Assembly: GCA_032718475.1 (NCBI GenBank)
Contig: JAUCBJ010006245.1
Span: 1-64,000, forward strand
Source of the DNA: Nemertoderma westbladi
Taxonomy: Eukaryota > Animalia > Xenacoelomorpha
DNA length: 64,000 nt
Direction: 5' to 3'
Shown here: one piece after another, positions 5,471 to 63,243 of the stretch
Numbering within the stretch: position 1 is the first letter of the stretch
Layout: every line of letters begins with the position of its first letter
The notes under the pieces: model-generated
Told to the model about the DNA's origin: nothing
Database searches by the model: none
The model's input: the letters and a program-made list of their open reading frames with translations, nothing else
Program-made: the position numbers and the translations under genes

Positions 5471-5632
5471 TTAGAAGTCATCGTCCGAATCGCCAATAGG
5501 TAACGATTGTCTACGACGGACAGTGGGATTAAATCTATCGAGTTTAGCGTTAACTTCTTCTTCATCGTCGTCGTCTGTGGTAAATGATTCATTACCATCA
5601 TCGGCGATCTCGAAGTCACTTCCCGATTCCTC
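5471..5632 (-). CDS. CLUAP1: CLUAP1 terminal exon, distal variant
   Basis: ttacag|GAG...TTC TAA; encodes [53 protein letters not shown]; phase 0. Confidence 0.8.
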   Translation of the reverse strand, partial: EESGSDFEIADDGNESFTTDDDDEEEVNAKLDRFNPTVRRRQSLPIGDSDDDF

Positions 5633-8600
5633 CTGTAAGACAGATAAAACATTCTAACGAAATTTGGTATGCTGATCCTAGTGACTTTATTAGCTATCCC
5701 TCGCTACGCTCGTCTGTAAAATAATCCATTCGGAACAGCAAACTGTATATGAGTATATCGCTACTTTACACAAAAAGTATGTTTAAAATTACGATATTAA
5801 GCTTGTATACCACGTTGTATGTACTGCTAACTACCTAAAAGTCGTCATCTGAGTCGTTTGTGATTGGTTGGCGTTGTTTGAAAGTAGTTCTACTAGCAGC
5901 GGCTACCGGGTCCATCATTGATCCATCTATGTCGAGGTCTCCATCGTCACTGGAGTTGGTTAACGATAAATCCTAACGATAGAGTGTTAGTATGATAGAA
6001 AGTTAGTAATATTATTAAATGTAACATATTATTTGCAGTGAGTTAGTTAGTACATCTGTGTGACATTCTTGGCAACAAATGAACCCATACTGAATGTGGT
6101 ACTGTTTACTTACATCGTCGTCATCGGAACCACCCATCATGGACCCATACATCTGTCGTCCTTGTGGAATGGAACCACGGAGTTTCTTTACTAGAGCGGC
6201 TCGTCCTAAACAAATTAACGAGATAGATTTTAATGGGATATACGAGGGGAGACTTCATATGAAAGTTATTGTTCCTGTTGCTCCCCACTCCCACAACCAA
6301 CTCCCACCCAACCTACCTTTAGCATCAGCTCCCCACTCCCACAACCAACTCCCACCCAACCTACCTTTAGCATCAGCTCCCCACTCCCACAACCAACTCC
6401 CACCCAACCTACCTTTAGCATCAGGTCCCCACTCCCACAACCAACTCCCACCCAACCTACCTTTAGCATCAGCTCCCCACTCCCACAACCAACTCCCACC
6501 CAACCTACCTTTAGCATCAGCTCCCCACTCCCACAACCAACTCCCACCCAACCTACCTTTAGCATCAGCTCCCCACTCCCACAACCAACTCCCACCCAAC
6601 CTACCTTTAGCATCAGCTCCCCACTCCCACAACCAACTCCCACCCAACCTACCTTTAGCATCAGCTCCCCACTCCCACAACCAACTCCCACCCAACCTAC
6701 CTTTAGCATCAGCTCCCCACTCCCACAACCAACTCCCACCCAACCTACCTTTAGCATCAGCTCCCCACTCCCACAACCAACTCCCACCCAACCTACCTTT
6801 AGCATCAGCTCCCCACTCCCACAACCAACTCCCACCCAACCTACCTTTAGCATCAGCTCCCCACTCCCACAACCAACTCCCACCCAACCTACCTTTAGCA
6901 TCAGCTCCCCACTCCCACAACCAACTCCCACCCAACCTACCTTTAGCATCAGCTCCCCACTCCCACAACCAACTCCCACCCAACCTACCTTTAGCATCAG
7001 CTCCCCACTCCCACAACCAACTCCCACCCAACCTACCTTTAGCATCAGCTCCCCACTCCCACAACCAACTCCCACCCAACCTACCTTTAGCATCAGCTCC
7101 CCACTCCCACAACCAACTCCCACCCAACCTACCTTTAGCATCAGCTCCCCACTCCCACAACCAACTCCCACCCAACCTACCTTTAGCATCAGCTCCCCAC
7201 TCCCACAACCAACTCCCACCCAACCTACCTTTAGCATCAGCTCCCCACTCCCACAACCAACTCCCACCCAACCTACCTTTAGCATCAGCTCCCCACTCCC
7301 ACAACCAACTCCCACCCAACCTACCTTTAGCATCAGCTCCCCACTCCCACAACCAACTCCCACCCAACCTACCTTTAGCATCAGCTCCCCACTCCCACAA
7401 CCAACTCCCACCCAACCTACCTTTAGCATCAGCTCCCCACTCCCACAACCAACTCCCACCCAACCTACCTTTAGCATCAGCTCCCCACTCCCACAACCAA
7501 CTCCCACCCAACCTACCTTTAGCATCAGCTCCCCACTCCCACAACCAACTCCCACCCAACCTACCTTTAGCATCAGCTCCCCACTCCCACAACCAACTCC
7601 CACCCAACCTACCTTTAGCATCAGCTCCCCACTCCCACAACCAACTCCCACCCAACCTACCTTTAGCATCAGCTCCCCACTCCCACAACCAACTCCCACC
7701 CAACCTACCTTTAGCATCAGCTCCCCACTCCCACAACCAACTCCCACCCAACCTACCTTTAGCATCAGCTCCCCACTCCCACAACCAACTCCCACCCAAC
7801 CTACCTTTAGCATCAGCTCCCCACTCCCACAACCAACTCCCACCCAACCTACCTTTAGCATCAGCTCCCCCCTCCCACAACCAACTCCCACCCAACCTAC
7901 CTTTAGCATCAGCTCCCCACTCCCACAACCAACTCCCACCCAACCTACCTTTAGCATCAGCTCCCCACTCCCACAACCAACTCCCACCCAACCTACCTTT
8001 AGCATCAGCTCCCCACTCCCACAACCAACTCCCACCCAACCTACCTTTAGCATCAGCTCCCCCCTCCCACAACCAACTCCCACCCAACCTACCTTTAGCA
8101 TCAGCTCCCCCCTCCCACAACCAACTCCCACCCAACCTACCTTTAGCATCAGCTCCCCACTCCCACAACCAACTCCCACCCAACCTACCTTTAGCATCAG
8201 CTCCCCCTTCCCACAACCAACTCCCACCCAACCTACCTTTAGCATCAGCTCCCCCCTCCCACAACCAACTCCCACCCAACCTACCTTTAGCATCAGCTCC
8301 CCACTCCAACAACCAACTCCCACCCAACCTACCTTTAGCATCAGCTCCCCACTCCCACAACCAACTCCCACCCAACCTACCTTTAGCATCAGCTCCCCCC
8401 TCCCACAACCAACTCCCACCCAACCTACCTTTAGCATCAGCTCCCCACTCCAACAACCAACTCCCACCCAACCTACCTTTAGCATCAGCTCCCCACTCCC
8501 ACAACCAACTCCCACCCAACCTACCTTTAGCATCAGCTCCCCCCTCCCACAACCAACTCCCACCCAACCTACCTTTAGCATCAGCTCCCCACTCCAACAA

Positions 8601-11600: not shown

Positions 11601-14600
11601 GCTCCCCACTCCCACAACCAACTCCCACCCAACCTACCTTTAGCATCAGCTCTCCCACCCAACCTACCTTTAGCATCAGCTCCCCCACCTTTAGCATCAG
11701 CTCTCCCACCCAACCTACCTTTAGCATCAGCTCCCCACTCCCACAACCAACTCCCACCCAACCTACCTTTAGCATCAGCTCCCCACTCCAACCTCCCTTT
11801 AGCATCAGCTCCCCACTCCCACAACCAACTCCCACCCAACCTACCTTTAGCATCAGCTCCCCACTCCCACAACCAACTCCCACCCAACCTACCTTTAGCA
11901 TCAGCTCTCCACTCCCACAACCAACTCCCACCCAACCTACCTTTAGCATCAGCTCTCCACTCCCACAACCAACTCCCACCCAACCTACCTTTAGCATCAG
12001 CTCCCCACTCCAACCTCCCTTTAGCATCAGCTCCCCACTCCCACAACCAACTCCCACCCAACCTACCTTTAGCATCAGCTCTCCACTCCCACAACCAACT
12101 CCCATCCAACCTACCTTTAGCATCAGCTCCCCACTCCCACAACCAACTCCCACCCAACCTACCTTTAGCATCAGCTCTCCACTCCCACAACCAACTCCCA
12201 CCCAACCTACCTTTAGCATCAGCTCCCCACTCCAACCTCCCTTTAGCATCAGCTCCCCACTCCCACAACCAACTCCCACCCAACCTACCTTTAGCATCAG
12301 CTCTCCACTCCCACAACCAACTCCCACCCAACCTACCTTTAGCATCAGCTCTCCCACCATCATCATCGCTCGCTGATGAACCATCATCATCACGAACCCC
12401 CAAATCAGCCAACTCCCACCCAACTTACCTTTAGCATCAGCTCTCCCACCCAACCTACCTTTAGCATCAGCTCCCCACTCTAACAACCAACTCCCATCCA
12501 ACCTACCTTTAGCATCAGCTCTCCCACCATCATCATCGCTCGCTGATGAACCATCATCATCACGAACCCCCAAATCAGCCAACTCCCACCCAACCTACCT
12601 TTAGCATCAGCTCTCCCACCCAACCTACCTTTAGCATCAGCTCCCCACTCCAACAACAACTCCCACCCAACCTACCTTTAGCATCAGCTCTCCACTCCCA
12701 CAACCAACTCCCATCCAACCTACCTTTAGCATCAGCTCTCCCACCCAACCTACCTTTAGCATCAGCTCTCCCACCATCATCATCGCTCGCTGATGAACCA
12801 TCATCATCACGAACCCCCAAATCAGCCAACTCCCACCCAACCTACCTTTAGCATCAGCTCTCCCACCCAACCTACCTTTAGCATCAGCTCTCCCACCCAA
12901 CCTACCTTTAGCATCAGCACTCCCACCCAACCTACCTTTAGCATCAGCTCCCCACTCCCACAACCAACTCCCACCCAACCTACCTTTAGCATCAGCTCCC
13001 CACTCCAACAACCAACTCCCACCCCACCTACCTTTAGCATCAGCTCCCCACTCCAACAACAACTCCCACCCAACCTACCTTTAGCATCAGCTCCCCACTC
13101 CCACAACCAACTCCCACCCAACCTACCTTTAGCATCAGCTCCCCACTCCAACAACCAACTCCCACCCCACCTACCTTTAGCATCAGCTCCCCACTCCAAC
13201 AACAACTCCCACCCAACCTACCTTTAGCATCAGCTCCCCACTCCCACAACCAACTCCCACCCAACCTACCTTTAGCATCAGCTCCCCACTCCAACAACCA
13301 ACTCCCACCCCACCTACCTTTAGCATCAGCTCCCCACTCCAACAACAACTCCCACCCAACCTACCTTTATCATCAGCTCCCCACTCCCACAACCAACTCC
13401 CACCCCACCTACCTTTAGCATCAGCTCCCCACTCCCACAACCAACTCCCACCCAACCTACCTTTAGCATCAACTCCCCACTCCAACAACCAACTCCCACC
13501 CAACCTACATTTAGCATCAGCTCTCCCACCTTTAGCATCAGCTCTCCCACCCAACCTACCTTTAGCATCAGCTCCCCCCTCCCACAACCAACTCCCATCC
13601 AACCTACCTTTAGCATCAGCTCCCCACTCCAACAACCAACTCCCACCCCACCTACCTTTAGCATCAGCTCCCCACTCCAACAACCAACTCCCACCCAACC
13701 TACCTTTAGCATCAGCTCCCCACTCCAACAACAACTCCCAACCAACCTACCTTTAGCATCAGCTCCCCACTCCAACAACAACAACTCCCAACCAACCTAC
13801 CTTTAGCATCAGCTCTCCCACCCAACCTACCTTTAGCACCAGCTCTCCCACCCAACCTACCTTTAGCATCAGCTCCCCACTCCCACAACCAACTCCCACC
13901 CAACCTACCTTTAGCATCAGATCCCCACTCCCACAACCAACTCCCACCCAACCTACCTTTAGCATCAGCTCCCCACTCCAACAACAACTCCCAACCAACC
14001 TACCTTTAGCATCAGCTCTCCCACCCAACCTACCTTTAGCATCAGCTCTCCTACCCAAAGTACCTTTAGCATCAGCTCTCCCACCCAACCTACCTTTAGC
14101 ATCAGCTCTCCCACCCAACCTACCTTTAGCATCAGCTCCCCACTCCCACAACCAACTCCCACCCAACCTACATTTAGCATCAGCTCTCCCCCCTTTAGCA
14201 TCAGCTCTCCCACCCAACCTACCTTTAGCATCAGCTCTCCCACACAACCTACCTTTAGCAACAGCTCCCCACTCCAACAACCAACTCCCACCCAACCTAC
14301 CTTTAGCATCAGCTCCCCACTCCAACAACAACTCCCAACCAACCTACCTTTAGCATCAGCTCTCCCACCCAACCTACCTTTAGCATCAGCTCGACCACCC
14401 AACCTACCTTTAGCATCAGCTCTCCTACCCAACCTACCTTTAGCATCAGCTCTCCCACCCAACCTACCTTTAGCATCAGCTCTCCCACCCAACCTACCTT
14501 TAGCATCAGCTCCCCACTCCCACAACCAACTCCCACCCAACCTACCTTTAGCATCAGCTCCCCACTCCAAAAAAAACTCCCAACCAACCTACCTTTAGCA

Positions 14601-17600: not shown

Positions 17601-20600
17601 CCTACCTTTAGCATCAGCTTCCCACTCCCACAACCAACTCCCACCCAACCTACCTTTAGCATCAGCTCCCCACTCCCACAACCAACTCCCACCCAACCTA
17701 CCTTTAGCATCAGCGCCCCACTCCCACAACCAACTCCCACCCAACCTACCTTTAGCATCAGCTTCCCACTCCAACAACCAACTCCCACCTAACCTACCTT
17801 TAGCATCAGCTCCCCACTCCAACAACAACTCCCAACCAACCTACCTTTAGCATCAGCTCTCCCACCCAACCTACCTTTAGCATCAGCTCTCCCACACAAC
17901 CTACCTTTAGCATCAGCTCCCCACTCCCACAACCAACTCCCACCCAACCTACCTTTAGCATCAGCGCCCCACTCCCACAACCAACTCCCACCCAACCTAC
18001 CTTTAGCATCAGCTCCCCACTCCAACAACCAACTCCCACCCAACCTACCTTTAGCATCAGCTCTCCCACCCAAACTACCTTTAGCATCAGCGCCCCACTC
18101 CCACAACCAACTCCCACCCCACCTACCTTTAGCATCAGCTCCCCACTCCCACAACCAACTCCCACCCAACCTACCTTTAGCATCAGCGGATGTAGGAAAA
18201 TTCGGTCCCGGACAATTCGGTCCCGGACAATTCGGTCCGGACAATTCGGTCCCGGACAATTCGGTCCCGGACAATTCGGTCCCAAAACACTAAATAAATG
18301 GGACCGAATTGTCCGAGTCAGTATCCGGACAATTCGGTCCCGGACAATTCGGTCCCGGACAATTCGGTCCCAAAACACAAAATTAATGGGACCGAATTGT
18401 CCGGGACCGAATTGTCCGGACCGAATTGTCCGGGACCGAATTGTCCTGCTTCCAGCATCAGCTCCCCACTCCAACAACCAACTCCCACCCAACCTACCTT
18501 TAGCATCAGCTCTCCCACCCAACCTACCTTTAGCATCAGCTCCCCACTCCAACAACCAACTCCCACCCAACCTACCTTTAGCATCAGCTCCCCACTCCCA
18601 CAACCAACTCCCACCCAACCTACATTTAGCATCAGCTCTCCACTCCCACAACCAACTCCCACCCAACCTACCTTTAGCATCAGCTCTCCCACCCAACCTA
18701 CCTTTAGCATCAGCTCTCCCACCCAACCTACCTTTAGCATCAGCTCCCCACTCCCACAACCAACTCCCACCCCACCTACCTTTAGCATCAGCCCCCACTC
18801 CAACAACCAACTCCCACCCAACCTACCTTTAGCATCAGCTCTCCCACCCAACCTACCTTTAGCATCAGCTCTCCCACCATCATCATCGCTCGCTGATGAA
18901 CCATCATCATCACGAACCCCCAAATCAGCCAACTCATCATCGTCGTAACGACCACCCATCCCTCCCCCCATGATTCCCCGTAGCTGATCCCGCTTCTGTT
19001 CCTCTTGCAGACTTTCCTGCATTCGTTTCATTGAATCATCGCTCGCCTGCAATCAGGTATTATATCCGTTAGGAACTTATTAACACACAATGACATGACT
19101 GCAAATGTTAAATGGCAGACATTAATTGTGATTTTGACAGAATGCAGAAAAACCTAAATGCCATTCTGATAAATGACATAATGTTAAATATCTTGATCGG
19201 TGAGTTTGTTACCTATACAACAGAAACAAACACACCGGCACCAAAATCAGCCATCACCCATTAATACGAATACTACTAGTAATAATATAAATTTAATATA
19301 ATAGGGTTTCCAAAAACATTTTTAATTTAGTCAAACAATCTCAAACACTCTTAGTCAACATCGAACCCTGGCAGAGTGGCAGACATGGAGTTCCTGTTAC
19401 TGCTCACTGCACTGTGCATTACTGCTCACTGCATTGTGCATTACTGCTCACTGCACTATGCATTACTGCTCACAGCACTATGCATTACTGCACAATGCAC
19501 TATGCATTACTGCTCAATGCACTATGCATTTTAGTGCTCAGTGCACTGTGCATTACTGCTCATTGCTCACTGCACTGTGCATTACTGCTCAGTGCTCAGT
19601 GCACTGTGCATTACTGCTCACTGCACTGTGCATTACTGCTCACTGCACTATGCATCACTGCTCAGTGCACTGTGCATTACTGCTCAGAGCCCACTGCACT
19701 GTGCATAACTGCTCACTGCACTGTGCATTACTGCTCACTGCACTGTGCATTACTGCTCAGTGCTCACTGCACTGTGCATTACTGTTCATTGCACTGTGCG
19801 TGTGCACTACTGCTCACTGCACCATGCATTACTGCACACTGCACTGTGCATTACCGCTCACTGCACTATGCATTACTGCACACTGCACTGTGCATTTACT
19901 GGTCACTGCAGCGCGCATTACTGCACACTACACTGTGCATTTACTGGTCAATGCACTATGCATTACTGCTCACTGCACTGTGCATTACCGCTCACTGCAC
20001 TATGCATTACTGCACACTGCACTGTGCATTACCGCTCACTGCACTATGCATTACTGCACAGTGCATTTAATGGTCACTGCAGCGCGCATTACTGCTCAGT
20101 GCACTGTGTATTTAATGGTCACTGCACTATGCATCACTGCTCATTTCACTATGCATTACTGTCCAACACAATCCCACCTCTTGTTGACTCTGTTCTGTCC
20201 GGTTTAATTCTTCCAGTAGACTTTCCAAATAGCTCAAATTGCGAAACTTTGTTATGTAAACTTGATAAATTTTCTGAAGTTCTTCTTCGAACTTTTCGTA
20301 ATCGTCCATGTAGGCAGGTCTAATAAAAATAAAATATTGTTACTTAGCAACGACTTTATATCGTTGATATTAATGGTTACTGGTTCCATTTAAATTACCT
20401 ACTAAGACACGCGCTCCACTGCACTGGTATATAAGTCGTATGTCATAGGTCGAAATAAATTATGGAACACATTGGTTTCAATGGGAGCGTCTCCACTGGT
20501 ATGTCATAGTTACGACAAATGAGTCGAAAGTGCATCTTTTGACATACGACGCATGAGTTATATCCGGCTAGAGGCCTGTGATTGGTTACTTTGTGTAGCT

Positions 20601-50600: not shown

Positions 50601-53600
50601 ACACTGGCCTTTAAACCCCGTTCTATCCCTTCCAACTAACCTCCACCACCCTAACGCTGGCCTTTAAACCCCGCTCTATCCCATCCAACTAACCTCCACC
50701 GCCCTAACGCTGGCCTTTAAACCCCGTTCTATCCCGTCCAACTAACCTCCACCACCCTAACCCTGGCCTTTAAACCCTGCTCTATCCCATCCAACTAACC
50801 TCCACCGCCCTAACACTGGCCTTTAAACCCCCCTCTATCTCATCCAACTAACCTCCACCACCCTAACGATGGGCTTTAAACCCCGCTCTATCCCGTCCAA
50901 CTAACCTCCACCGCCCTAATGCTGGCCTTTAAACCCCGCTCTATCCCATCCAACTAACCTCCACCACCCTAACCCTGGCCTTTAAACCCCGCTCTATCCC
51001 ATCCATCTAACCTCCACCACCCTAACGCTGGCCTTTAAACCCCGCTCTATCTCATCCAACTAACCTACACCGCCCTAACGCTGGCCTTTAAACCCCGCTC
51101 TATCTCATCCAACTAACCTCCACCGCCCTAACGCTGGCCTTTAAACCCCGTTCTATCCCGTCCATCTAACCTCCACCACCCTAACCCTGGCCTTTAAACC
51201 CCGCTCTATCCCATCCATCTAACCTCCACCACCCTAACGCTGGCCTTTAAACCCCGCTCTATCCCATCCATCTAACCTCCACCACCCTAACGCTGGCCTT
51301 TAAACCCCGCTCTATCTCATCCAACTAACCTACACCGCCCTAACGCTGGCCTTTAAACCCCGCTCTATCCCATCCAACTAACCTCCACCACCCTAACGCT
51401 GGCCTCTAAACCCCGCTCTATCCCATCCAACTAACCTCCACCACCCTAACCCTGGCCTTTAAACCCCGCTCTATCCCGTCCAACTAACCTCCACCGCCCT
51501 AACGCTGGCCTTTAAACCCCGCTCTATCCCGTCCAACTAACCTCCACCACCCTAACGCTGGCCTCTAAACCCTGCTCTATCCCATCCAACTAACCTCCAC
51601 CACCCTAACCCTGGCCTTTAAACCCCGCTCTATCCCGTCCAACTAACCTCCACCACCCTAACGCTGGCCTCTAAACCCCGCTCTATCCCATCCAACTAAC
51701 CTCCACCACCCTAACCCTGGCCTTTAAACCCCGCTCTATCCCGTCCAACTAACCTCCACTGCCCTAACGCTGGCCTTTAAACCCCGCTCTATCCCGTCCA
51801 ACTAACCTCCAACGCCCTAACGCTGGCCTCTAAACCCCGCTCTATCCCATCCAACTAACCTCCACCACCCTAACCCTGGCCTTTAAACCCCGCTCTATCC
51901 CATCCATCTAACCTCCACCGCCCTAATGCTGGCCTTTAAACCCCGCTCTATCTCATCCAACTAACCTCCACCGCCCTAACGCTGGCCTTTAAACCCCGCT
52001 CTATCCCGTCCAACTAACCTCCACCACCCTATCGCTGGCCTTTAAACCCCGCTCTATCCCGTCCAACTAACCTCCACCACCCTAACGCTGGCCTTTAAAC
52101 CCCGCTCTATCCCATCCATCTAACCTCCACCACCCTAACCCTGGCCTTTAAACCCTGCTCTATCCCATCCAACTAACCTCCACCGCCCTAATGCTGGCCT
52201 TTAAACCCCGCTCTATCTCATCCAACTAACCTACACCGCCCTAACGCTGGCCTTTAAACCCCGCTCTATCCCATCCATCTAACCTCCACCGCCCTAACGC
52301 TGGCCTTTAAACCCCGCTCTATCCCATCCAACTAACCTCCACCACGCTAACGCTGGCCTTTAAACCCCGCTCTATCCCATCCAACTAACCTCCACCACCC
52401 TAACGCTGGCCTTTAAACCCCGCTCTATCTCATCCAACTAACCTACACCGCCCTAACGCTGGCCTTTAAACCCCGCTCTATCCCATCCATCTAACCTCCA
52501 CCGCCCTAACGCTGGCCTTTAAACCCCGCTCTATCCCATCCAACTAACCTCCACCACCCTAACGCTGGCCTTTAAACCCCCCTCTATCTCATCCAACTAA
52601 CCTCCACCACCCTAACGATGGGCTTTAAACCCCGCTCTATCCCGTCCAACTAACCTCCACCGCCCTAATGCTGGCCTTTAAACCCCGCTCTATCCCGTCC
52701 AACTAACCTCCCTGCCCTAACGCTGGCCTTTAAACCCCTCTCTATCCCGCCCAACTAACCTCCACCGCCCTAACGCTGGCCTTTAAACCCCGCTCTATCC
52801 CGTCCAACTAACCTCCACCACCCTAACGCTGGCCTCTAAACCCCGCTCTATCCCATCCAACTAACCTCCACCACCCTAACCCTGGCCTTTAAACCCCGTT
52901 CTATCCCGTCCAACTAACCTCCACCACCCTAACCCTGGCCTTTAAACCCCGCTCTATCTCATCCAACTAACCTCCACCGCCCTAACGCTGGCCTTTAAAC
53001 CCCACTCTATCCCATCCAACTAACCTCCACCGCCCTAACGCTGGCCTTTAAACCCCGTTCTATCCCATCCAACTAACCTCCACCGCCCTAACACTGGCCT
53101 TTAAACCCCGTTCTATCCCTTCCAACTAACCTCCACCACCCTAACGCTGGCCTTTAAACCCCGCTCTATCCCATCCAACTAACCTCCACCGCCCTAACGC
53201 TGGCCTTTAAACCCCGTTCTATCCCGTCCAACTAACCTCCACCACCCTAACCCTGGCCTTTAAACCCTGCTCTATCCCATCCAACTAACCTCCACCGCCC
53301 TAACACTGGCCTTTAAACCCCCCTCTATCTCATCCAACTAACCTCCACCACCCTAACGATGGGCTTTAAACCCCGCTCTATCCCGTCCAACTAACCTCCA
53401 CCGCCCTAATGCTGGCCTTTAAACCCCGCTCTATCCCATCCAACTAACCTCCACCACCCTAACCCTGGCCTTTAAACCCCGCTCTATCCCATCCATCTAA
53501 CCTCCACCACCCTAACGCTGGCCTTTAAACCCCGCTCTATCTCATCCAACTAACCTACACCGCCCTAACGCTGGCCTTTAAACCCCGCTCTATCTCATCC

Positions 53601-56600
53601 AACTAACCTCCACCGCCCTAACGCTGGCCTTTAAACCCCGTTCTATCCCGTCCATCTAACCTCCACCACCCTAACCCTGGCCTTTAAACCCCGCTCTATC
53701 CCATCCATCTAACCTCCACCACCCTAACGCTGGCCTTTAAACCCCGCTCTATCCCATCCATCTAACCTCCACCACCCTAACGCTGGCCTTTAAACCCCGC
53801 TCTATCTCATCCAACTAACCTACACCGCCCTAACGCTGGCCTTTAAACCCCGCTCTATCTCATCCAACTAACCTCCACCGCCCTAACGCTGGCCTTTAAA
53901 CCCCCCTCTATCTCATCCAACTAACCTCCACCGCCCTAACGCTGGCCTTTAAACCCCGCTCTATCTCATCCAACTAACCTACACCGCCCTAACGCTGGCC
54001 TTTAAACCCCGCTCTATCTCATCCAACTAACCTACACCGCCCTAACGCTGGCCTTTAAACCCCGCTCTATCTCATCCAACTAACCTCCACCGCCCTAACG
54101 CTGGCCTTTAAACCCCCCTCTATCCCATCCAACTAACCTCCACCGCCCTAACGCTGGCCTTTAAACCCCGTTCTATCCCATCCAACTAACCTCCACCGCC
54201 CTAACACTGGCCTTTAAACCCCGTTCTATCCCGTCCAACTAACCTCCACCACCCTAACGCTGGCCTTTAAACCCCACTCTATCCCATCCAACTAACCTCC
54301 ACCGCCCTAACACTGGCCTTTAAACCCCGTTCTATCCCGTCCAACTAACCTCCACCGCCCTAACGCTGGCCTTTAAACCCCGCTCAATCTCATCCAACTA
54401 ACCTCCACCGCCCTAACGCTGGCCTTTAAACCCCACTCTATCCCATCCAACTAACCTCCACCGCCCTAACGCTGGCCTTTAAACCCCGCTCTATCTCATC
54501 CAACTAACCTCCACCGCCCTAACGCTGGCCTTTAAACCCTGCTCTATCTCATCCAACTAACCTCCACCGCCCTAACGCTGGCCTTTAAACCCCGCTCTAT
54601 CTCATCCAACTAACCTCCACCGCCCTAATGCTGGCCTTTAAACCCCACTCTATCCCATCCAACTAACCTCCACCGCCCTAACGCTGGCCTTTAAACCCCG
54701 CTCTATCTCATCCAACTAACCTCCACCGCCCTAACGCTGGCCTTTAAACCCCGCTCTATCTCATCCAACTAACCTCCACCGCCCTAACGCTGGCCTTTAA
54801 ACCCCGTTCTATCCCGTCCAACTAACCTCCACCGCCCTAACGCTGGCCTTTAAACCCCGTTCTATCCCATCCAACTAACCTCCACCGCCCTAACACTGGC
54901 CTTTAAACCCCGTTCTATCCCGTCCAACTAACCTCCACCACCCTAACGCTGGCCTTTAAACCCCGCTCTATCCCATCCAACTAACCTCCACCGCCCTAAC
55001 GCTGGCCTTTAAACCCCGTTCTATCCCGTCCAACTAACCTCCACCACCCTAACCCTGGCCTTTAAACCCTGCTCTATCCCATCCAACTAACCTCCACTGC
55101 CCTAACGCTGGCCTTTAAACCCCGCTCTATCCCATCCAACTAACCTCCACCGCCCTAACGCTGGCCTTTAAACCCCGCTCTATCCCATCCAACTAACCTC
55201 CACCACCCTAACGCTGGCCTCTAAACCCCGCTCTATCCCATCCAACTAACCTCCACCGCCCTAACGCTGGCCTTTAAACCCCGCTCTATCCCATCCAACT
55301 AACCTCCACCACCCTAACGCTGGCCTCTAAACCCCGCTCTATCCCATCCAACTAACCTCCACCACCCTAACCCTGGCCTTTAAACCCCGCTCTATCCCGT
55401 CCAACTAACCTCCACCGCCCTAACGCTGGCCTTTAAACCCCGCTCTATCCCGTCCAACTAACCTCCACCACCCTAACGCTGGCCTCTAAACCCCGCTCTA
55501 TCCCATCCAACTAACCTCCACCACCCTAACCCTGGCCTTTAAACCCCGCTCTATCCCGTCCAACTAACCTCCACCACCCTAACGCTGGCCTCTAAACCCC
55601 GCTCTATCCCATCCAACTAACCTCCACCACCCTAACCCTGGCCTTTAAACCCCGCTCTATCCCGTCCAACTAACCTCCACTGCCCTAACGCTGGCCTTTA
55701 AACCCCGCTCTATCCCGTCCAACTAACCTCCAACGCCCTAACGCTGGCCTCTAAACCCCGCTCTATCCCATCCAACTAACCTCCACCACCCTAACCCTGG
55801 CCTTTAAACCCCGCTCTATCCCATCCATCTAACCTCCACCGCCCTAATGCTGGCCTTTAAACCCCGCTCTATCTCATCCAACTAACCTCCACCGCCCTAA
55901 CGCTGGCCTTTAAACCCCGCTCTATCCCGTCCAACTAACCTCCACCACCCTATCGCTGGCCTTTAAACCCCGCTCTATCCCGTCCAACTAACCTCCACCA
56001 CCCTAACGCTGGCCTTTAAACCCCGCTCTATCCCATCCATCTAACCTCCACCACCCTAACCCTGGCCTTTAAACCCTGCTCTATCCCATCCAACTAACCT
56101 CCACCGCCCTAATGCTGGCCTTTAAACCCCGCTCTATCTCATCCAACTAACCTACACCGCCCTAACGCTGGCCTTTAAACCCCGCTCTATCCCATCCATC
56201 TAACCTCCACCGCCCTAACGCTGGCCTTTAAACCCCGCTCTATCCCATCCAACTAACCTCCACCACGCTAACGCTGGCCTTTAAACCCCGCTCTATCCCA
56301 TCCAACTAACCTCCACCACCCTAACGCTGGCCTTTAAACCCCGCTCTATCTCATCCAACTAACCTACACCGCCCTAACGCTGGCCTTTAAACCCCGCTCT
56401 ATCCCATCCATCTAACCTCCACCGCCCTAACGCTGGCCTTTAAACCCCGCTCTATCCCATCCAACTAACCTCCACCACCCTAACGCTGGCCTTTAAACCC
56501 CCCTCTATCTCATCCAACTAACCTCCACCACCCTAACGATGGGCTTTAAACCCCGCTCTATCCCGTCCAACTAACCTCCACCGCCCTAATGCTGGCCTTT

Positions 56601-59600
56601 AAACCCCGCTCTATCCCGTCCAACTAACCTCCCTGCCCTAACGCTGGCCTTTAAACCCCTCTCTATCCCGCCCAACTAACCTCCACCGCCCTAACACTGG
56701 CCTTTAAACCCCCCTCTATCTCATCCAACTAACCTCCACCACCCTAACGATGGGCTTTAAACCCCGCTCTATCCCGTCCAACTAACCTCCACCGCCCTAA
56801 TGCTGGCCTTTAAACCCCGCTCTATCCCATCCAACTAACCTCCACCGCCCTAACGCTGGCCTTTAAACCCCCCTCTATCTCATCCAACTAACCTCCACCG
56901 CCCTAACGCTGGGCTTTAAACCCCGCTCTATCCCGTCCAACTAACCTCCACCGCCCTAATGCTGGCCTTTAAACCCCGCTCTATCCCATCCAACTAACCT
57001 CCACCGCCCTAATGCTGGCCTTTAAACCCCGCTCTATCCCATCCAACTAACCTCCACCGCCCTAACGCTGGCCTTTAAACCCCCCTCTATCTCATCCAAC
57101 TAACCTCCACCACCCTAACGCTGGGCTTTAAACCCCGCTCTATCCCGTCCAACTAACCTCCACCGCCCTAACGCTGGCCTTTAAACCCCCCTCTATCCCG
57201 TCCAACTAACCTCCACCGCCCTAACGCTGGGCTTTAAACCCCGCTCTATCCCGTCCAACTAACCTCCCTGCCCTAACACTGGCCTTTCAACCCCACTCTA
57301 TCCCATCCAACTAACCTCCACCGCCCTAACGCTGGCCTTTAAACCCCCCTCTATCCCATCCAACTAACCTCCACCGCCCTAACGCTGGCCTTTAAACCCC
57401 CCTCTATCTCATCCAACTAACCTCCACCACCCTAACGCTGGCCTTTAAACCCCGTTCTATCCCGTCCAACTAACCTCCCTGCCCTAACACTGGCCTTTAA
57501 ACCCCGCTCTATCCCGTCCAACTAACCTCCACCGCCCTAATGCTGGCCTTTAAACCCCGTTCTATCCCATCCAACTAACCTCCACCGCCCTAACGCTGGC
57601 CTTTAAACCCCCCTCTATCTCATCCAACTAACCTCCACCGCCCTAACGCTGGCCTTTAAACCCCCCTCTATCTCATCCAACTAACCTCCACCACCCTAAC
57701 GATGGGCTTTAAACCCCGCTCTATCCCGTCCAACTAACCTCCCTGCCCTAACGCTGGCCTTTAAACCCCGTTCTATCCCATCCAACTAACCTCCACCGCC
57801 CTAACGCTGGCCTTTAAACCCCCCTCTATCTCATCCAACTAACCTCCACCACCCTAACGCTGGCCTTTAAACCCCGTTCTATCCCGTCCAACTAACCTCC
57901 CTGCCCTAACGCTGGCCTTTAAACCCCGCTCTATCCCGTCCAACTAACCTCCACCGCCCTAATGCTGGCCTTTAAACCCCGTTCTATCCCATCCAACTAA
58001 CCTCCACCGCCCTAACGCTGGCCTTTAAACCCCCCTCTATCTCATCCAACTAACCTCCACCGCCCTAACGCTGGCCTTTAAACCCCCCTCTATCTCATCC
58101 AACTAACCTCCACCACCCTAACGATGGGCTTTAAACCCCGCTCTATCCCGTCCAACTAACCTCCCTGCCCTAATGCTGGCCTTTAAACCCTGCTCTATCC
58201 CATCCAACTAACCTCCACCGCCCTAACGCTGGCCTTTAAACCCCCCTCTATCTCATCCAACTAACCTCCACCGCCCTAACGCTGGCCTTTAAACCCCCCT
58301 CTATCTCATCCAACTAACCTCCACCACCCTAACGATGGGCTTTAAACCCCGCTCTATCCCGTCCAACTAACCTCCACCGCCCTAACGCTGGCCTTTAAAC
58401 CCCCCTCTATCTCATCCAACTAACCTCCACCACCCTAACGCTGGCCTTTAAACCCCGTTCTATCCCGTCCAACTAACCTCCCTGCCCTAACGCTGGCCTT
58501 TAAACCCCGCTCTATCCCGTCCAACTAACCTTCACCGCCCTAACGCTGGCCTTTAAACCCCGCTCTATCCCGTCCAACTAACCTCCACCGCCCTAACGCT
58601 GGCCTTTAAACCCCCCTCTATCTCATCCAACTAACCTCCACCGCCCTAACGCTGGCCTTTAAACCCCCCTCTATCTCATCCAACTAACCTCCACCACCCT
58701 AACGATGGGCTTTAAACCCCCCTCTATCTCATCCAACTAACCTCCACCACCCTAACGCTGGCCTTTAAACCCCCCTCTATCTCATCCAACTAACCTCCAC
58801 CACCCTAACGATGGGCTTTAAACCCCCCTCTATCTCATCCAACTAACCTCCACCGCCCTAACGCTGGCCTTTAAACCCCCCTCTATCTCATCCAACTAAC
58901 CTCCACCACCCTAACGCTGGCCTTTAAACCCCCCTCTATCTCATCCAACTAACCTCCACCACCCTAACGCTGGCCTTTAAACCCCCCTCTATCTCATCCA
59001 ACTAACCTCCACCACCCTAACGATGGGCTTTAAACCCCCCTCTATCTCATCCAACTAACCTCCACCGCCCTAACGCTGGCCTTTAAACCCCCCTCTATCT
59101 CATCCAACTAACCTCCACCACCCTAACGATGGGCTTTAAACCCCCCTCTATCTCATCCAACTAACCTCCACCGCCCTAACGCTGGCCTTTAAACCCCCCT
59201 CTATCTCATCCAACTAACCTCCACCACCCTAACGCTGGCCTTTAAACCCCCCTCTATCTCATCCAACTAACCTCCACCACCCTAACGCTGGCCTTTAAAC
59301 CCCCCTCTATCTCATCCAACTAACCTCCACCACCCTAACGATGGGCTTTAAACCCCCCTCTATCTCATCCAACTAACCTCCACCACCCTAACGATGGGCT
59401 TTAAACCCCGCTCTATCCCGTCCAACTAACCTCCACCGCCCTAACGCTGGCCTTTAAACCCCCCTCTATCTCATCCAACTAACCTCCACCACCCTAACGC
59501 TGGCCTTTAAACCCCTCTCTATCTCATCCAACTAACCTCCACCACCCTAACGCTGGCCTTTAAACCCCCCTCTATCTCATCCAACTAACCTCCACCACCC

Positions 59601-62600
59601 TAACGATGGGCTTTAAACCCCCCTCTATCTCATCCAACTAACCTCCACCGCCCTAACGCTGGCCTTTAAACCCCCCTCTATCTCATCCAACTAACCTCCA
59701 CCACCCTAACGCTGGCCTTTAAACCCCTCTCTATCTCATCCAACTAACCTCCACCACCCTAACGCTGGCCTTTAAACCCCGCTCTATCTCATCCAACTAA
59801 CCTCCACCGCCCTAACGATGGGCTTTAAACCCCGCTCTATCCCGTCCAACTAACCTCCCTGCCCTAACGCTGGCCTTTAAACCCCCCTCTATCTCATCCA
59901 ACTAACCTCCACCACCCTAACGATGGGCTTTAAACCCCGCTCTATCTCATCCAACTAACCTACACCGCCCTAACGCTGGCCTTTAAACCCCGTTCTATCC
60001 CGTCCAACTAACCTCCACCGCCCTAACGCTGGCCTTTAAACCCCCCTCTATCTCATCCATCTAACCTCCACCGCCCTAACGCTGGCCTTTAAACCCCCCT
60101 CTATCTCATCCAACTAACCTCCACCACCCTAACGATGGGCTTTAAACCCCGCTCTATCCCGTCCAACTAACCTCCACCGCCCTAACGCTGGCCTTTAAAC
60201 CCCCCTCTATCTCATCCAACTAACCTCCACCACCCTAACGCTGGCCTTTAAACCCCGTTCTATCCCGTCCAACTAACCTCCACCGCCCTAATGCTGGCCT
60301 TTAAACCCCCCTCTATCTCATCCAACTAACCTACACCGCCCTAACGCTGGCCTTTAAACCCCGCTCTATCTCATCCAACTAACTTCCACCGCCCTAACGC
60401 TGGCCTTTAAACCCCACTCTATCCTGTCCAACTAACCTCCACCACCCTAACGCTGGCCTTTAAACCCTGCTCTATCCCATCCAACTAACCTCCACCGCCC
60501 TAACGCTGGCCTTTAAACCCCGCTCTATCTCATCCAACTAACCTCCACCGCCCTAATGCTGGCCTTTAAACCCCGTTCAATCCCGTCCAACTAACCTCCA
60601 CCGCCCTAACGCTGGCCTTTAAACCCCGCTCTATCTCATCCAACTAACCTACACCGCCCTAATGCTGGCCTTTAAACCCCGTTCTATCCCGTCCAACTAA
60701 CCTCCACCGCCCTAACGCTGGCCTTTAAACCCCGTTCTATCCCGTCCAACTAACCTACACTGCCCTAACACTGGCCTTTAAACCCCGTTCTATCCCGTCC
60801 AACTAACCTCCACCACCCTAACGCTGGCCTTTAAACCCCGCTCTATCCCATCCAACTAACCTCCACCGCCCTAACTACTACTACTACTACTAGGATCGGC
60901 ATGCTGCATTGCAGCTGCATTTTTAAGAATGCTGTGCCGGCTTGTCAACAAAATTGCACCGCCACAACTACCTATCACCCATGACATTTGCTAGATCATC
61001 CGCATCTTTAAGGCCAGTGTCCTTTAAGATGCGTCTCAAGAAAGTCATGGGCTGTCCACCATGCTTATTCACTCCATGAGGCTGCCAAAGTACAAGATTA
61101 TGCACTGGCTGGTCCTCACGGCGAAAGCAATGTCATGCAAAGCGGAGGCGATTTTGTTCTAGTGTCAAGCTTGGGGGAACCAATGAGACACCTCCAATGT
61201 TATATAGTGTCTGGTTGGAGATGAGTGCATTGTACTTGACACAATGAACCCGGCGTAGCATTCTTGTGAATGTGCCATCCAGAGATTTGGTGTCCTCAGC
61301 AGTTAGAGCCCAGCATGGACTCCCGTAGAGGAGTACTGGAACTACTGCTGCTCTAAATAATCGGACCTTAAGTTTCCGATTAATTCTCGGTGACTTCCAA
61401 ATCCTGGAAAGCCTATTCAAGGCTGCCCATGCCTTTCCCTTACGTATTCGAAGGTCCTCATCTGACTTCCGGATCCATGATCCCAGGTAACAGAAGTCGT
61501 CCACCACATGCTCAAGCATACCATCCTTTGAGCTTATGCTCATCCGATCAGAGACTTGCTGAGGACTTTCAAAGTTAACTGTCAGAATTTTGGTCTTTCT
61601 GGAGTTAATAAAAAGACCAACACTAGAAGCAGCATGTTCTAATGAGCTGAGGAGCCGTTGGGCTCCCTCTAATGATTCTGAGAGTACTCCTAAGTCATCA
61701 GCAAAATCTAGATCAGTTAGGTACTTGGCAGGATTTCCTCGACTTCTGGAGCCAGTAGGTGGAGTTATCATCACCCCATCATCATTATAATGATCTAAGG
61801 ACATGCGTAGAACATAGTCAACCACAATAATGAACAAGAATGGTGCAAGTGTGTCTCCTTGGAGGACGCCCCATAACACTTCAAATGGTTCTGTGTCACC
61901 GTCAACAGTAGACACAAATGTTGTCGAACCATCGAATACTGATCTGATTGCTGCAATAATTTCATCAGGAATTCCATATAATGAAAGTATGCTGAACATA
62001 CGTGAGCGAGAGACTGGATCAAAGGCCTTGAAGAAGTCAACAAAGATAACAGCCAGATGCCTGTCTTTCTTTTTTGATAACTCTTCAATTATCCTTCTAA
62101 GTGCCAAAATGGGCTCCATGGTCCCACGACCTTTACGGAACCCATTCTGATTTCCACGGAGCAGTCTCTCAATGGGATCCCTGATGCGATTTAATAGAAT
62201 CCTATTGTATAGCTTTGCAGCAATCGAGATCAATGAGATTCCCCGAAAAGAACCATAGAGTGTTAGGTTGCCCTTCTTGGGAACTGCCACCAATTTATTT
62301 GTTTTCATTTCTTGTGGGACTCTTGTTGTTCGGCCTTTCAACCCCACTCTATCCCATCCAACTAACCTCCACCGCCCTAACGCTGGCCTTTAAACCCCGT
62401 TCTATCCCGTCCAACTAACCTCCACCGCCCTAACGCTGGCCTTTAAACCCCGCTCTATCCCATCCAACTAACCTCCACCACCCTAACGCTGGCCTTTAAA
62501 CCCCGTTCTATCCCGTCCAACTAACCTCCACCGCCCTAACGCTGGCCTTTAAACCCCGTTCTATCCCATCCAACTAACCTCCACCGCCCTAACGCTGGCC

Positions 62601-63243
62601 TTTAAACCCCGCTCTATCCCATCCAACTCCATCTGTTTAGACAGCGCGACGGTTCTCTGGTCCCGAAGTTCCACCTCCCGACCCAACAGGTCGTAGAGAC
62701 TCGCGCCCTGCGAGGTGATATCCGAAGCGAGTTGTCGGCAGAGTTTCAATTCGTTCGCCTGAATGATGAAACATTAATTAAAGCCCTTAACGGTGATCTA
62801 TTAATCATACAAACTCTTTTCTAGTCCTGTTACAAAAATATGGTCAACAGTGAAGATGATGTCAGTTTCATAATTGAATATTTATGACAACAAAATTAAC
62901 GCAAAATTTTGTCAACTTAAAAGCCCAAATATTAAAAAGTATCACAAATTTATACTCTAAAAAAATGAATAAATTCAATAAAACAGGTAAAGGAATATGA
63001 TATAAGTACAGGTAAAGTATAAGTTCATTTATAAGTATAAATGAATTAGTACGACTGACTTACTCTACTGTTCATATCGTAACTCCGACTGGATGGTGCA
63101 GACGAACTGTCTGCATTGTCTAACTGTTTGTTCGATTTAATCGCATTGTAGAGAATACCTGTGACTTTTAGCAATTCTTTAACTGCGTACCCATCAGCTT
63201 GGTACAACTTCTTCGTGTTGAGTTTTATGTGCGCTTTAGTCGC
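5471..63243 (-). CDS. CLUAP1: Clusterin-associated protein 1 / IFT38 gene, multi-exon, 5' part outside the window
   Basis: Exons 63064-63243, 62579-62758, 43033-43166, 20178-20319, 18857-19046 and 6114-6205, then 5835-5972 or 5471-5632, all have AG/GT boundaries and compatible phases (0,0,2,0,1,0). The joined peptide has CLUAP1 motifs recognised from memory of the family: [80 protein letters not shown], and an acidic tail ending SDDDF. Confidence 0.95.
5835..5972 (-). CDS. CLUAP1: CLUAP1 terminal exon, proximal variant
   Basis: gttag|GAT...TTT TAG; encodes [45 protein letters not shown]; phase 0. Confidence 0.8.
   Translation of the reverse strand, partial: DLSLTNSSDDGDLDIDGSMMDPVAAASRTTFKQRQPITNDSDDDF
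6114..6205 (-). CDS. CLUAP1: CLUAP1 exon F (92 nt)
   Basis: tttag|GA...GAT|gtaagt; encodes (G)[30 protein letters not shown], resembling the CLUAP1 G(T/S)MxGGDS motif. Confidence 0.88.
6279..18876 (-). repeat. Exon E/donor-derived minisatellite: 48-bp main unit plus 47-, 30- and 18-bp variants, about 12.6 kb
   Basis: Sense unit GAGCTGATGCTAAAG|GTAGGTTGGGTGGGAGTTGGTTGTGGGAGTGGG = last 15 nt of exon E, its donor and the intron start; roughly 280 copies. Confidence 0.97.
18188..18453. mobile_element. Foldback-like MITE with 9-bp TSD (Mutator-like) inserted in the array
   Basis: AGCATCAGC duplicated at 18179-18187 and 18454-18462; ends GGATGTAGGA / TCCTGCTTCC; built from 15-bp GGACAATTCGGTCCC units in direct and inverted blocks. 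Confidence 0.8.
18857..19046 (-). CDS. CLUAP1: CLUAP1 exon E (190 nt)
   Basis: tgcag|GCG...AAA G|gtaggt; encodes [24 protein letters not shown]...[10 protein letters not shown]; phase 1 fits exon F. Confidence 0.85.
19398..20162. repeat. Degenerate 22-bp minisatellite (ACTGCTCACTGCACTGTGCATT)n
   Basis: About 35 units, starting about 16 nt into intron D-E from the donor. Confidence 0.92.
20178..20319 (-). CDS. CLUAP1: CLUAP1 exon D (142 nt)
   Basis: attag|A CCT GCC...GAG|gtggga; encodes (R)[47 protein letters not shown]. Confidence 0.93.
20742..22174. repeat. 63-bp minisatellite abutting the BEL/Pao integrase
   Basis: Unit CACAGTAAACCCTTCCACTCTGTTTCCTAAAGGAATGCCTGTTCACCACCATGGGTGATCTTC, about 22 copies with indel variants. 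Confidence 0.92.
22173..24644 (-). mobile_element. Degenerate BEL/Pao retrotransposon, 3' part (RT end, RNase H, integrase)
   Basis: Frameshifted ORFs with [75 protein letters not shown]. Confidence 0.9.
24645..24817 (-). repeat. Gypsy 3' LTR
   Basis: 173 bp; preceded on the minus strand by polypurine tract AAAGGGGGGAG. Confidence 0.95.
24859..26277 (-). CDS. Gypsy integrase
   Basis: HQSHQGIE...FWPGL zinc-finger region, [27 protein letters not shown]...SPAELVFGR. Confidence 0.9.
   Translation of the reverse strand: MCAHINATVIALADNNSNSSLNDPNIESIKQAAILDPEYQKLIYLIQNGFPAKPTNLVHNLQPYWKLRNDLSVDDGLVLYLSRIVIPQSQRCHVLELLHQSHQGIERSKRRARQTVFWPGLTVDIINKVGKCMPFQQHKPSLPPEPLLSDLQPTRPFEEVGLDLFSYAGQHYLAYIDRFSGWPEIHAFGRHDPNSAKVATVLRHLFSNLGIPIKLRTDGGPQFHSAEFRSFLQDWGVNQLFSAPHFPQSTGLTESAVKTLKHLVATSSHHGDIQTDSFHKRLLELRNTPRVNGFSPAELVFGRQTRARVPSHHTNFSSQWTKHLDTLDTMVTPPPQIQNRPLKALTVHTPVHIQNAKTKLWDRTGSIIGASGRNYHIRLPSGHVLWRNRRHIRRNILDQEPQMKYSARLLPKGILKEYHKNRIPPNNNQKNKCTLNPAMDVVVFQKDEPPTAMLRRSSRIRHQPIRYDSTKY
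26241..27539 (-). pseudogene. Gypsy RT-RNase H
   Basis: [23 protein letters not shown] (expected Asp replaced by Val), [23 protein letters not shown]; frameshift before the integrase. Confidence 0.92.
29890..30855. repeat. 66-bp tandem repeat within LINE ORF2
   Basis: About 14 units reading [22 protein letters not shown] in the ORF2 frame. Confidence 0.93.
32208..32231 (-). other. 2A-like StopGo motif DIESNPGP
   Basis: [12 protein letters not shown] matches D(V/I)ExNPGP just before the APE domain. Confidence 0.8.
33294..34043 (-). CDS. LINE ORF1 (coiled coil plus RRM-like domain)
   Basis: Heptad region, then [35 protein letters not shown]. Confidence 0.85.
   Translation of the reverse strand: MSRSTQSRSSSNTPATNKELDGSNSEILSAISKLSDDISFLKSEVAPLKKVINDITSLKKEVSSIKKDTSELSALLLRVDQLEIEAASLKSRLATFDTKFDDLDQLSRRSNFLIHALPENKDHHPVLHDLGLQPSDIDISHRFGVKKNDHGKSRPVLVCLLSQAKKIHVMKNKGSVASNSLFITEHLTKRRATLLSTLKEHKRNGLLHSAYTFNGTIMAKAQEGVKPVPIHSDVDIGTLIRGSGLSKGE
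34278..34942 (-). pseudogene. Gypsy aspartic protease and RT N-terminus
   Basis: ALPDTGS motif; ends MVEKGII at the LINE TSD and resumes [16 protein letters not shown] near 27525. Confidence 0.88.
34950..36180 (-). pseudogene. Gypsy gag, frameshifted
   Basis: Fragmented ORFs with a charged coiled coil and zinc-knuckle-like [22 protein letters not shown]. Confidence 0.7.
36242..36259 (-). promoter_or_regulatory. Primer-binding site, probably tRNA-Ser
   Basis: TGGCGCTGCGAGTAGGAT directly after the LTR; its complement ATCCTACTCGCAGCGCCA resembles a tRNA-Ser 3' end. Confidence 0.75.
36260..36432 (-). repeat. Gypsy 5' LTR
   Basis: 173 bp; 3 mismatches to 24645-24817; followed by the PBS. Confidence 0.95.
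36433..39848 (-). mobile_element. Degenerate BEL/Pao retrotransposon, 5' part (gag, protease, RT start)
   Basis: [22 protein letters not shown]...[18 protein letters not shown] (protease), [23 protein letters not shown]...FCLDLEA; reading resumes across the Gypsy TSD; no LTR seen. Confidence 0.88.
38875..39381 (-). mobile_element. 5'-truncated RTE-type LINE in BEL gag
   Basis: Close match to 60890-61385; CCAGAT TSD at 38869-38874 and 39382-39387; removing it restores gag TYLSGKAL. Confidence 0.88.
39849..43078 (-). repeat. Exon C/donor-derived 54-bp minisatellite (some 60-bp units), about 3.2 kb
   Basis: Sense unit GAGTTGGAGAGAGGACAGAAACGGTTGAGCACGTTGCAGACAGTTAG|GTTAGTG = last 47 nt of exon C plus 7 nt of donor; about 59 copies. 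Confidence 0.97.
43033..43166 (-). CDS. CLUAP1: CLUAP1 exon C (134 nt)
   Basis: attag|GCT...GTT AG|gttagt; encodes [44 protein letters not shown](R); phase 2 fits exon D. Confidence 0.92.
43192..62628 (-). repeat. Exon B/donor-derived 53-bp minisatellite, about 19.4 kb including an RTE insert
   Basis: Sense unit TTGGATGGGATAGAGCGGGGTTTAAAGGCCAGCGTTAGGGCGGTGGAG|GTTAG = last 48 nt of exon B plus donor; roughly 340 copies. Confidence 0.97.
60874..62331 (-). mobile_element. 5'-truncated RTE-type LINE with (TAG)n tail, inserted in the 53-bp array
   Basis: RT ORF 61133-62347 with [40 protein letters not shown]; about six TAG repeats at the 3' end. Confidence 0.92.
62579..62758 (-). CDS. CLUAP1: CLUAP1 exon B (180 nt)
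   Basis: ttcag|GCG...GAG|gttagt; encodes [60 protein letters not shown]. Confidence 0.93.
63064..63243 (-). CDS. CLUAP1: CLUAP1 exon A (180 nt)
   Basis: tatag|GCG...AGA|gtaagt; encodes [37 protein letters not shown]...YDMNSR. Confidence 0.95.

Follow-up and report, generated by a model that had tools for sequence, protein, structure and literature searches.

Three kilobase-scale minisatellite arrays span 5' splice sites of one gene, CLUAP1, in the assembled genome of Nemertoderma westbladi

Introduction

Tandem repeats whose unit crosses an exon-intron boundary and thereby copies a splice signal have been described in amphioxus, where these "mirage" minisatellites are found in Adh3, troponin C, the globin genes BflGb6 and BflGb9, and PGBD5 (PMC3087553, PMC3902484). 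In the accounts given there, splicing is not visibly disturbed, the length of the repeats varies, and their origin is described as unclear; for the Adh3 mirages, somatic instability and units of 10-72 bp are reported. Human genes also contain minisatellites that span donors, namely the 37-bp VNTR in F7 intron 7 and repeats in CBS intron 13, 6-16 intron 2, LMNB2 and PDGF intron 4 (PMC1557585). Using mutagenesis of F7, Borensztajn et al. showed a scanning rule, under which splicing selects whichever functional donor lies furthest upstream (PMC1557585). Finally, internal tandem repeats at exon-intron boundaries have been described in human segmental duplications (PMC2812944).

Here, we analyzed a window comprising the first 64,000 nucleotides (forward strand) of contig JAUCBJ010006245.1 from the xenacoelomorph Nemertoderma westbladi (assembly GCA_032718475.1), in which the gene CLUAP1 carries three arrays of this type. 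Mirages are head-to-tail repeats with units of 10-160 bp; the head-to-tail units in CLUAP1 measure 53, 54/60 and 48/30 bp, cross the exon-intron boundary, retain the splice signals, and have the true boundary as their terminal copy. The arrays thus resemble the amphioxus mirages in structure and unit size, and the possibility of more than one cluster per gene is likewise shared, as amphioxus PGBD5 has two. They differ from the mirages described in PMC3087553 and PMC3902484 in copy number (60-339 copies, or 3-18 kb, versus 2-7 copies in amphioxus), in position (three of six donors and none of eight acceptors, whereas mirages are reported at both 5' and 3' boundaries), and in that several unit lengths have been re-seeded at one donor in the third array.

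The likeness to the human F7 type is that the first monomer spans the donor, that the intron contains identical pseudo-donors, and that the most upstream donor is used. In contrast, the human arrays reported in PMC1557585 have 5-25 copies, with one array per gene, a size that this locus far exceeds, since the CLUAP1 arrays are 10-60 times larger; moreover, the F7 unit includes only 4 exon nucleotides, whereas the CLUAP1 units include 15-79. With the boundary minisatellites of PMC2812944, whose expansion is attributed to slippage or unequal crossover, the arrays share their location; those repeats, however, are described as a source of new introns, or of alternative transcripts, in young paralogues, whereas the CLUAP1 arrays add length to introns already present in a conserved gene, without a change in the mRNA.

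A preliminary description of this DNA knew of no named mechanism, while allowing for an earlier description; both the repeats and the choice of the first donor are in fact covered by the accounts of the mirages (PMC3087553) and of the F7, CBS, 6-16, LMNB2 and PDGF repeats with their experimentally tested scanning (PMC1557585). Our literature search, which covered few subscription papers, returned no kilobase-scale case and no genome-wide test for enrichment at donors. Donor-spanning repeats are a kind already known and named; what differs here is their size (18 and 12 kb), the presence of three cases in one gene, and the repeated re-seeding.

Results

The minus strand of the window encodes the 3' part of animal CLUAP1 (IFT38), for which we mapped eight exons (Table 1). 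A homologue search using exon A as query returned CLUAP1 proteins, and a Pfam Cluap1 match was obtained for four of the five exon translations scanned, exon E being the one without any match. In a tree calculated with a quick method from 45 rows (44 of the 120 homologues listed, plus the first 225 residues from the window), the window's CLUAP1 took no settled position, on a long branch outside the mollusc, annelid and brachiopod set, and its best identity was 64%. The introns measure 305 nt (A-B), 19,412 nt (B-C), 22,713 nt (C-D), 1,131 nt (D-E), 12,651 nt (E-F) and 141 nt (F-G), with donors at 63063, 62578, 43032, 20177, 18856 and 6113. Both array-free donors lack a preceding AG, whereas the four donors with an array at or beside them read AG/GT followed by G-rich sequence. 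The two alternative last exons end as other CLUAP1 proteins do, and their mutual DNA similarity is weak.

Table 1. Features of the window, with positions counted from its first nucleotide.
Feature	Position	Strand	Remarks
Exon A, 180 nt	63064..63243	-	donor GTAAGT, without array
Exon B, 180 nt	62579..62758	-	final 48 nt serve as first copy of array 1
Exon C, 134 nt	43033..43166	-	final 47 nt serve as first copy of array 2
Exon D, 142 nt	20178..20319	-	
Exon E, 190 nt	18857..19046	-	final 15-22 nt are copy 1 of array 3
Exon F, 92 nt	6114..6205	-	donor GTAAGT, without array
Exon G, alternative last exon	5835..5972	-	ends SDDDF-stop; use suggested by the end of the X4 contig
Exon H, alternative last exon	5471..5632	-	ends SDDDF-stop
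Array 1, 53-bp unit	43190..62628	-	unit of 48 nt exon B + 5 intron nt; 339 donor anchors
Perfect duplication in array 1, 46 units, 2,437 bp	48892..53819	-	53819-51382 equals 51329-48892
LINE fragment, 1.46 kb	60876..62331	-	within array 1; 5'-truncated, RVT_1, short tandem tail
Array 2, 54/60-bp unit	39866..43079	-	unit of 47 nt exon C + 7 intron nt; 60 donor anchors
Fourth array, 22-bp unit	19397..20161	-	starts 16 nt past donor D; no CLUAP1 exon sequence
Array 3, 48/30/21/92-bp units	6280..18878	-	on the end of exon E; 278 donor anchors
MITE-like insertion in array 3	18188..18453	.	inverted ends, 9-bp target-site duplication
Three 92-bp units in array 3	12337..12845	-	exon tail starts at 12832, 12585 and 12415

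Three of the six donors in the window are spanned by an array, while none of the eight acceptors is. At all three, the exon itself is the first copy, and every copy is direct, with none inverted. The repeat anatomy therefore agrees with the preliminary description of three units (53, 54 and 48/30 bp) that cross from an exon into the donor and begin with the exon, and our recount of the donor copies (339, 60 and 278 in arrays 1, 2 and 3) comes close to the earlier figures of roughly 340, 59 and 280. The further statement that three introns are inflated by the arrays holds for introns B-C and E-F, about 93% and 97% of which are array sequence, but not for intron C-D, where the share is 14%.

Array 1 fills about 18.0 kb of its intron, and its final copy places a donor 41 nt from the acceptor of exon C; 81 distinct 53-mers occur among 313. 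Array 2 extends over 3.2 kb. Its commonest variant (43% of the 54-mers) creates a stop in the CLUAP1 frame (39866-43032, minus strand), and an in-frame stop is found in 23 of 59 units, none of them among the first nine. An antisense ORF of 1,112 aa over array 2 was set aside, since a unit free of stops on that strand would produce it as a by-product. Array 3 fills 12.3 kb of its intron; it is the only array in which divergence clearly follows a gradient with distance from the exon, and its distal part is nearly homogeneous, with 105 of 190 48-mers being identical. Six kilobases into array 3, three 92-bp units each hold the last 79 nt of exon E without a mismatch, and were either copied anew from the exon in recent times or left over from the early array. 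On the sense strand, the array units contain 39-52% G and 4-10% C and, unlike the real acceptors of the gene, no pyrimidine tract. A strand signal was sought in the spectrum of variant types among the array copies, which yielded nothing usable. By eye, telomere-like words were seen inside the units.

Arrays 1 and 3 are interrupted by a LINE fragment, inserted after about 5.6 units, and by a MITE-like element with internal 15-bp repeats, located about nine units into the array. Both insertions lie near the exon end, as if the arrays had later grown mostly at their distal side. A second, related LINE 3' end was noticed by eye at about 38870-39380 (minus strand). Much of the rest of intron C-D consists of remains of LTR- and LINE-type retroelements, and Pfam matches were obtained for six of the 12 ORFs scanned, including the LINE inside array 1. 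The region 24400-36500 (minus strand) contains nested retroelements: a Gypsy-like element, whose matching ends were located by eye near 24,600-24,800 and 36,250-36,430, lies inside Pao-type remains and itself contains a LINE. CLUAP1 exon sequence is absent from three of the six long arrays in the window, two of which are situated inside retroelement ORFs. Arrays with 63-bp and 66-bp units lie at 20743-22174 and 29947-30830; by eye, the former begins in an integrase-like reading frame, without Pfam match, near the Pao-type remains. The latter separates the endonuclease part of a LINE ORF from its reverse transcriptase part, and, being in frame there, is predicted to encode a proline-rich repeat.

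We compared the locus with short-read contigs from sequencing runs. A run search returned five runs with the sequence among the eight rows listed, none of them given as RNA, and four of them were examined: X1 (sample S1), X2 and X3 (sample S2), and X4 (sample S3). X1 may correspond to the source sample of the assembly, while X2 and X3 come from another sample. Over both units beside exon C, contigs of X1, X2 and X3 showed tandem joints that go back 53 as well as many variants; for array 3, tandem joints and variant contigs were present in X1 and X2, while X3 gave no contig there, which counts neither for nor against the array. In X2, one contig links the end of array 1, across the acceptor, with exon C. 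The arrays are therefore no invention of the assembly, being present, though apparently shorter in one of them, in contigs from two samples, and it is the assembly only that provides their lengths.

That the assembler inflated short arrays is very improbable, even though copy estimates, calculated as word depth divided by the depth of the flanking contig, which is not a true copy number, stay below the assembled counts (110 versus 190 and 19 versus 29 in X1; 26 versus 190, 7 versus 32 and 4 versus 28 in X2). The perfect 2.4-kb block could likewise be a duplication made by the assembler, and neither in X1 nor in X2 does the exon E contig visibly branch where the three 92-bp units would make it do so. 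However, even the depth-based estimates imply arrays of kilobase size, and inflation accounts poorly for the tandem joints and many variant contigs in two samples or for the variety of 53-mers in array 1. The LINE fragment and the MITE with its target-site duplication inside the arrays also speak against assembler invention. Ratios of word depth in array 3 were about 4-fold lower in X2 than in X1, with the same proviso that contig depth is not a copy number, and the depth ratios together hint at arrays that are kilobase-sized and variable between samples. The 92-bp units are probably absent from X2, since the exon E contig there has the same depth (23.3) as the exon C contig (23.4). For X1, the missing branch speaks neither for nor against their presence, as assembly-graph cleaning can delete branch links of this kind.

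Run X4, labelled "DNA?", yielded at this locus a single contig of 1,363 nt (depth 407) that covers neither intron nor array sequence and is, for this reason, most likely derived from a transcriptome. The contig joins exons B-C-D-E-F and uses the first donor at each of the three arrays, as the preliminary description had supposed, which confirms the exon-intron boundaries there. Within it, the exon B tail occurs once, exon C occupies 802-937 and exon E occupies 1078-1270. At its loose ends we identified the unique part of exon B, both ends of exon D and the beginning of exon F. We rejected a processed pseudogene in a DNA run as its source, in view of the single contig and the lack of intron or array cover. 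The evidence for first-donor use is this one assembled transcript, which stems from another individual with unknown array alleles and from an assembly procedure in which rare isoforms are dropped. From the exon lengths, the end of exon F is predicted at position 1,361, and the contig stops at 1,363, past two bases common to exons G and H; this stop at the point of divergence hints that both last exons are used.

We considered whether the arrays serve as a splicing dial, in which array 2 donors would lengthen the coiled coil or frameshifting donors would tune the mRNA level via decay. In array 2, donors 2-10 would indeed be in frame and free of stops if used, as would donor 2 in array 3, and the GT is intact in 334 of 339, 60 of 60 and 271 of 278 copies of arrays 1, 2 and 3. 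The latter finding also led us to reject selection against decoy donors. In human 6-16 and CBS, moreover, the next two pseudo-sites are reported to be used (PMC1557585); the CLUAP1 contig, by contrast, shows no such use, although minor use could escape contigs. The dial is nevertheless very unlikely: the deep X4 contig is unbranched at all three junctions, not one of the 333 further donors in array 1 would both keep the frame and avoid a stop, array 2 carries its in-frame stops in more than a third of its units, and array size seems to differ severalfold between samples. Most likely, the arrays have no function. Recursive splicing at ratchet points uses a pyrimidine-rich acceptor directly before each internal AG/GT; the units lack a pyrimidine tract and so do not qualify as ratchet points.

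The reading that we favor, with a probability of roughly 0.6, is that the arrays are three independent minisatellites of the mirage/F7 type, 3-18 kb in size, which started by slippage, grew by unequal exchange and persisted because the first donor is used. An array would start when microhomology allows slippage from the G-rich first bases of the intron back into the end of the exon; unequal exchange would then enlarge it, and the downstream copies would be ignored as the first donor wins. Matches between the intron start and the exon were present at the junctions of the 30-bp unit (8 bp), the 92-bp unit (7 bp), array 1 (7 bp, possibly a partial last copy) and the 48-bp unit (4 bp), while no microhomology could be demonstrated at the unit junction of array 2. 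At the far end of array 3, the G-rich intron start is kept and continues into unique intron, so that the match there is not merely the unit itself. The three unit lengths of array 3 represent three different jumps back into exon E. By chance, shuffled sequence gave a mean of 0.9 diagonals with matches of at least 7 bp, compared to three observed, and P(>=2) was 0.21; such matches are common in sequence of this composition and thus permit slippage without proving it. Later growth resembles the usual turnover of repeats, as seen in the 2,437-bp perfect block and in the homogenization of array 3 at its distal side, and the arrays without exon sequence, two of them in retroelement ORFs, indicate that this genome readily makes arrays elsewhere.

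Persistence of the arrays may in part reflect a survival filter, by which copies behind a donor would be tolerated and copies in exons or across acceptors, tending to enter the mRNA, would be selected out. Under a null model with tolerance alone, the probability that at least three of four host arrays span a donor is 0.003-0.024, given a compact ancestral gene and assumed intron sizes, and that of at least three donor-spanning arrays is 4e-5 when all 20.9 kb of non-array sequence is taken as target, in line with the earlier claim of donor clustering beyond uniform chance; these P values are post hoc, as the window was chosen for the array feature. Since clustering exceeds the tolerance-only null, survival alone is insufficient and a second factor is needed. 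The fourth host array, which also starts close to a donor (D), was counted against survival alone as well. As second factor we chose the G-rich flanks, with the hotspot discussed below as a live rival: these donors may be unstable due to a G-rich sense strand that is prone to form quadruplexes or R-loops. G4Hunter scores of the donor windows place the array donors as the top three (B 0.96, E 0.80, C 0.45, D 0.42, F 0.36, A 0.00). On exon sequence alone, exon F (0.47), which has no array, ties with E and exceeds C (0.30). The ranking is also in part circular, as the unit itself supplies the first bases of the intron.

An explanation that we regard as less likely, though still live, is a donor-coupled hotspot, in which pausing of transcription or R-loops at 5' splice sites would cause breaks or template switches, so that arrays are born there and re-seeded from the exon. 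An array starts within about 50 nt at four of the six donors and at none of the eight acceptors, and the low null probabilities fit this proposal, although they carry the post hoc bias of a window picked for the feature. The different exon E points reached by the units of array 3, and the perfect 79-nt match of the 92-bp units to an exon 6 kb away, are in agreement with re-seeding, and the origin of mirages is, in the account of PMC3087553, unclear. On the CLUAP1 sense strand, five of the six long arrays are rich in G; this excess on one strand is, however, not significant, exon-derived units inherit the skew of coding sequence, and in the 66-bp array it is the other strand that is rich in G. 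That arrays arise inside retroelements too argues against a process tied to donors. The corresponding generalization, that in this animal satellite-scale arrays are born again and again at 5' splice sites whose flanks are G-rich, by transcription-coupled template switching into the exon, as might be read from the 30-, 48- and 92-bp units at one donor, we consider doubtful.

The preliminary description had also suggested RNA templating. Copying of units from spliced mRNA or cDNA and their re-insertion, by RNA-templated repair or by a rolling-circle route from an RNA-derived circle, would account for the exon ends in the units, and the long perfect runs of array 3 suit any rapid amplification. 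Yet all units hold intron sequence and none contains the next exon, and 0 of 7 exon-exon junction 16-mers were found in the window on either strand with up to one mismatch, which makes a spliced template extremely improbable. Templating from unspliced RNA is possible.

Discussion

In the assembled transcript, first-donor choice holds against up to about 330 near-identical donors. The last donor of array 1 lies close to the acceptor of exon C, and the first donor is still used, an argument that this animal relies on exon definition or on co-transcriptional commitment. In practice, gene prediction and the mapping of reads can be misled by arrays like these.

Since its units carry specific variants and three arrays lie in the same gene, CLUAP1 of N. 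westbladi offers a good natural test of donor choice, and the gene is equally suited to testing whether repeats are born preferentially at donors. If the proposal of recurrent array birth at G-rich-flanked 5' splice sites were true, donor amplification would be a main driver of intron growth, from about 40-110 nt to 12-19 kb, and first-donor scanning would hide hundreds of perfect decoys.
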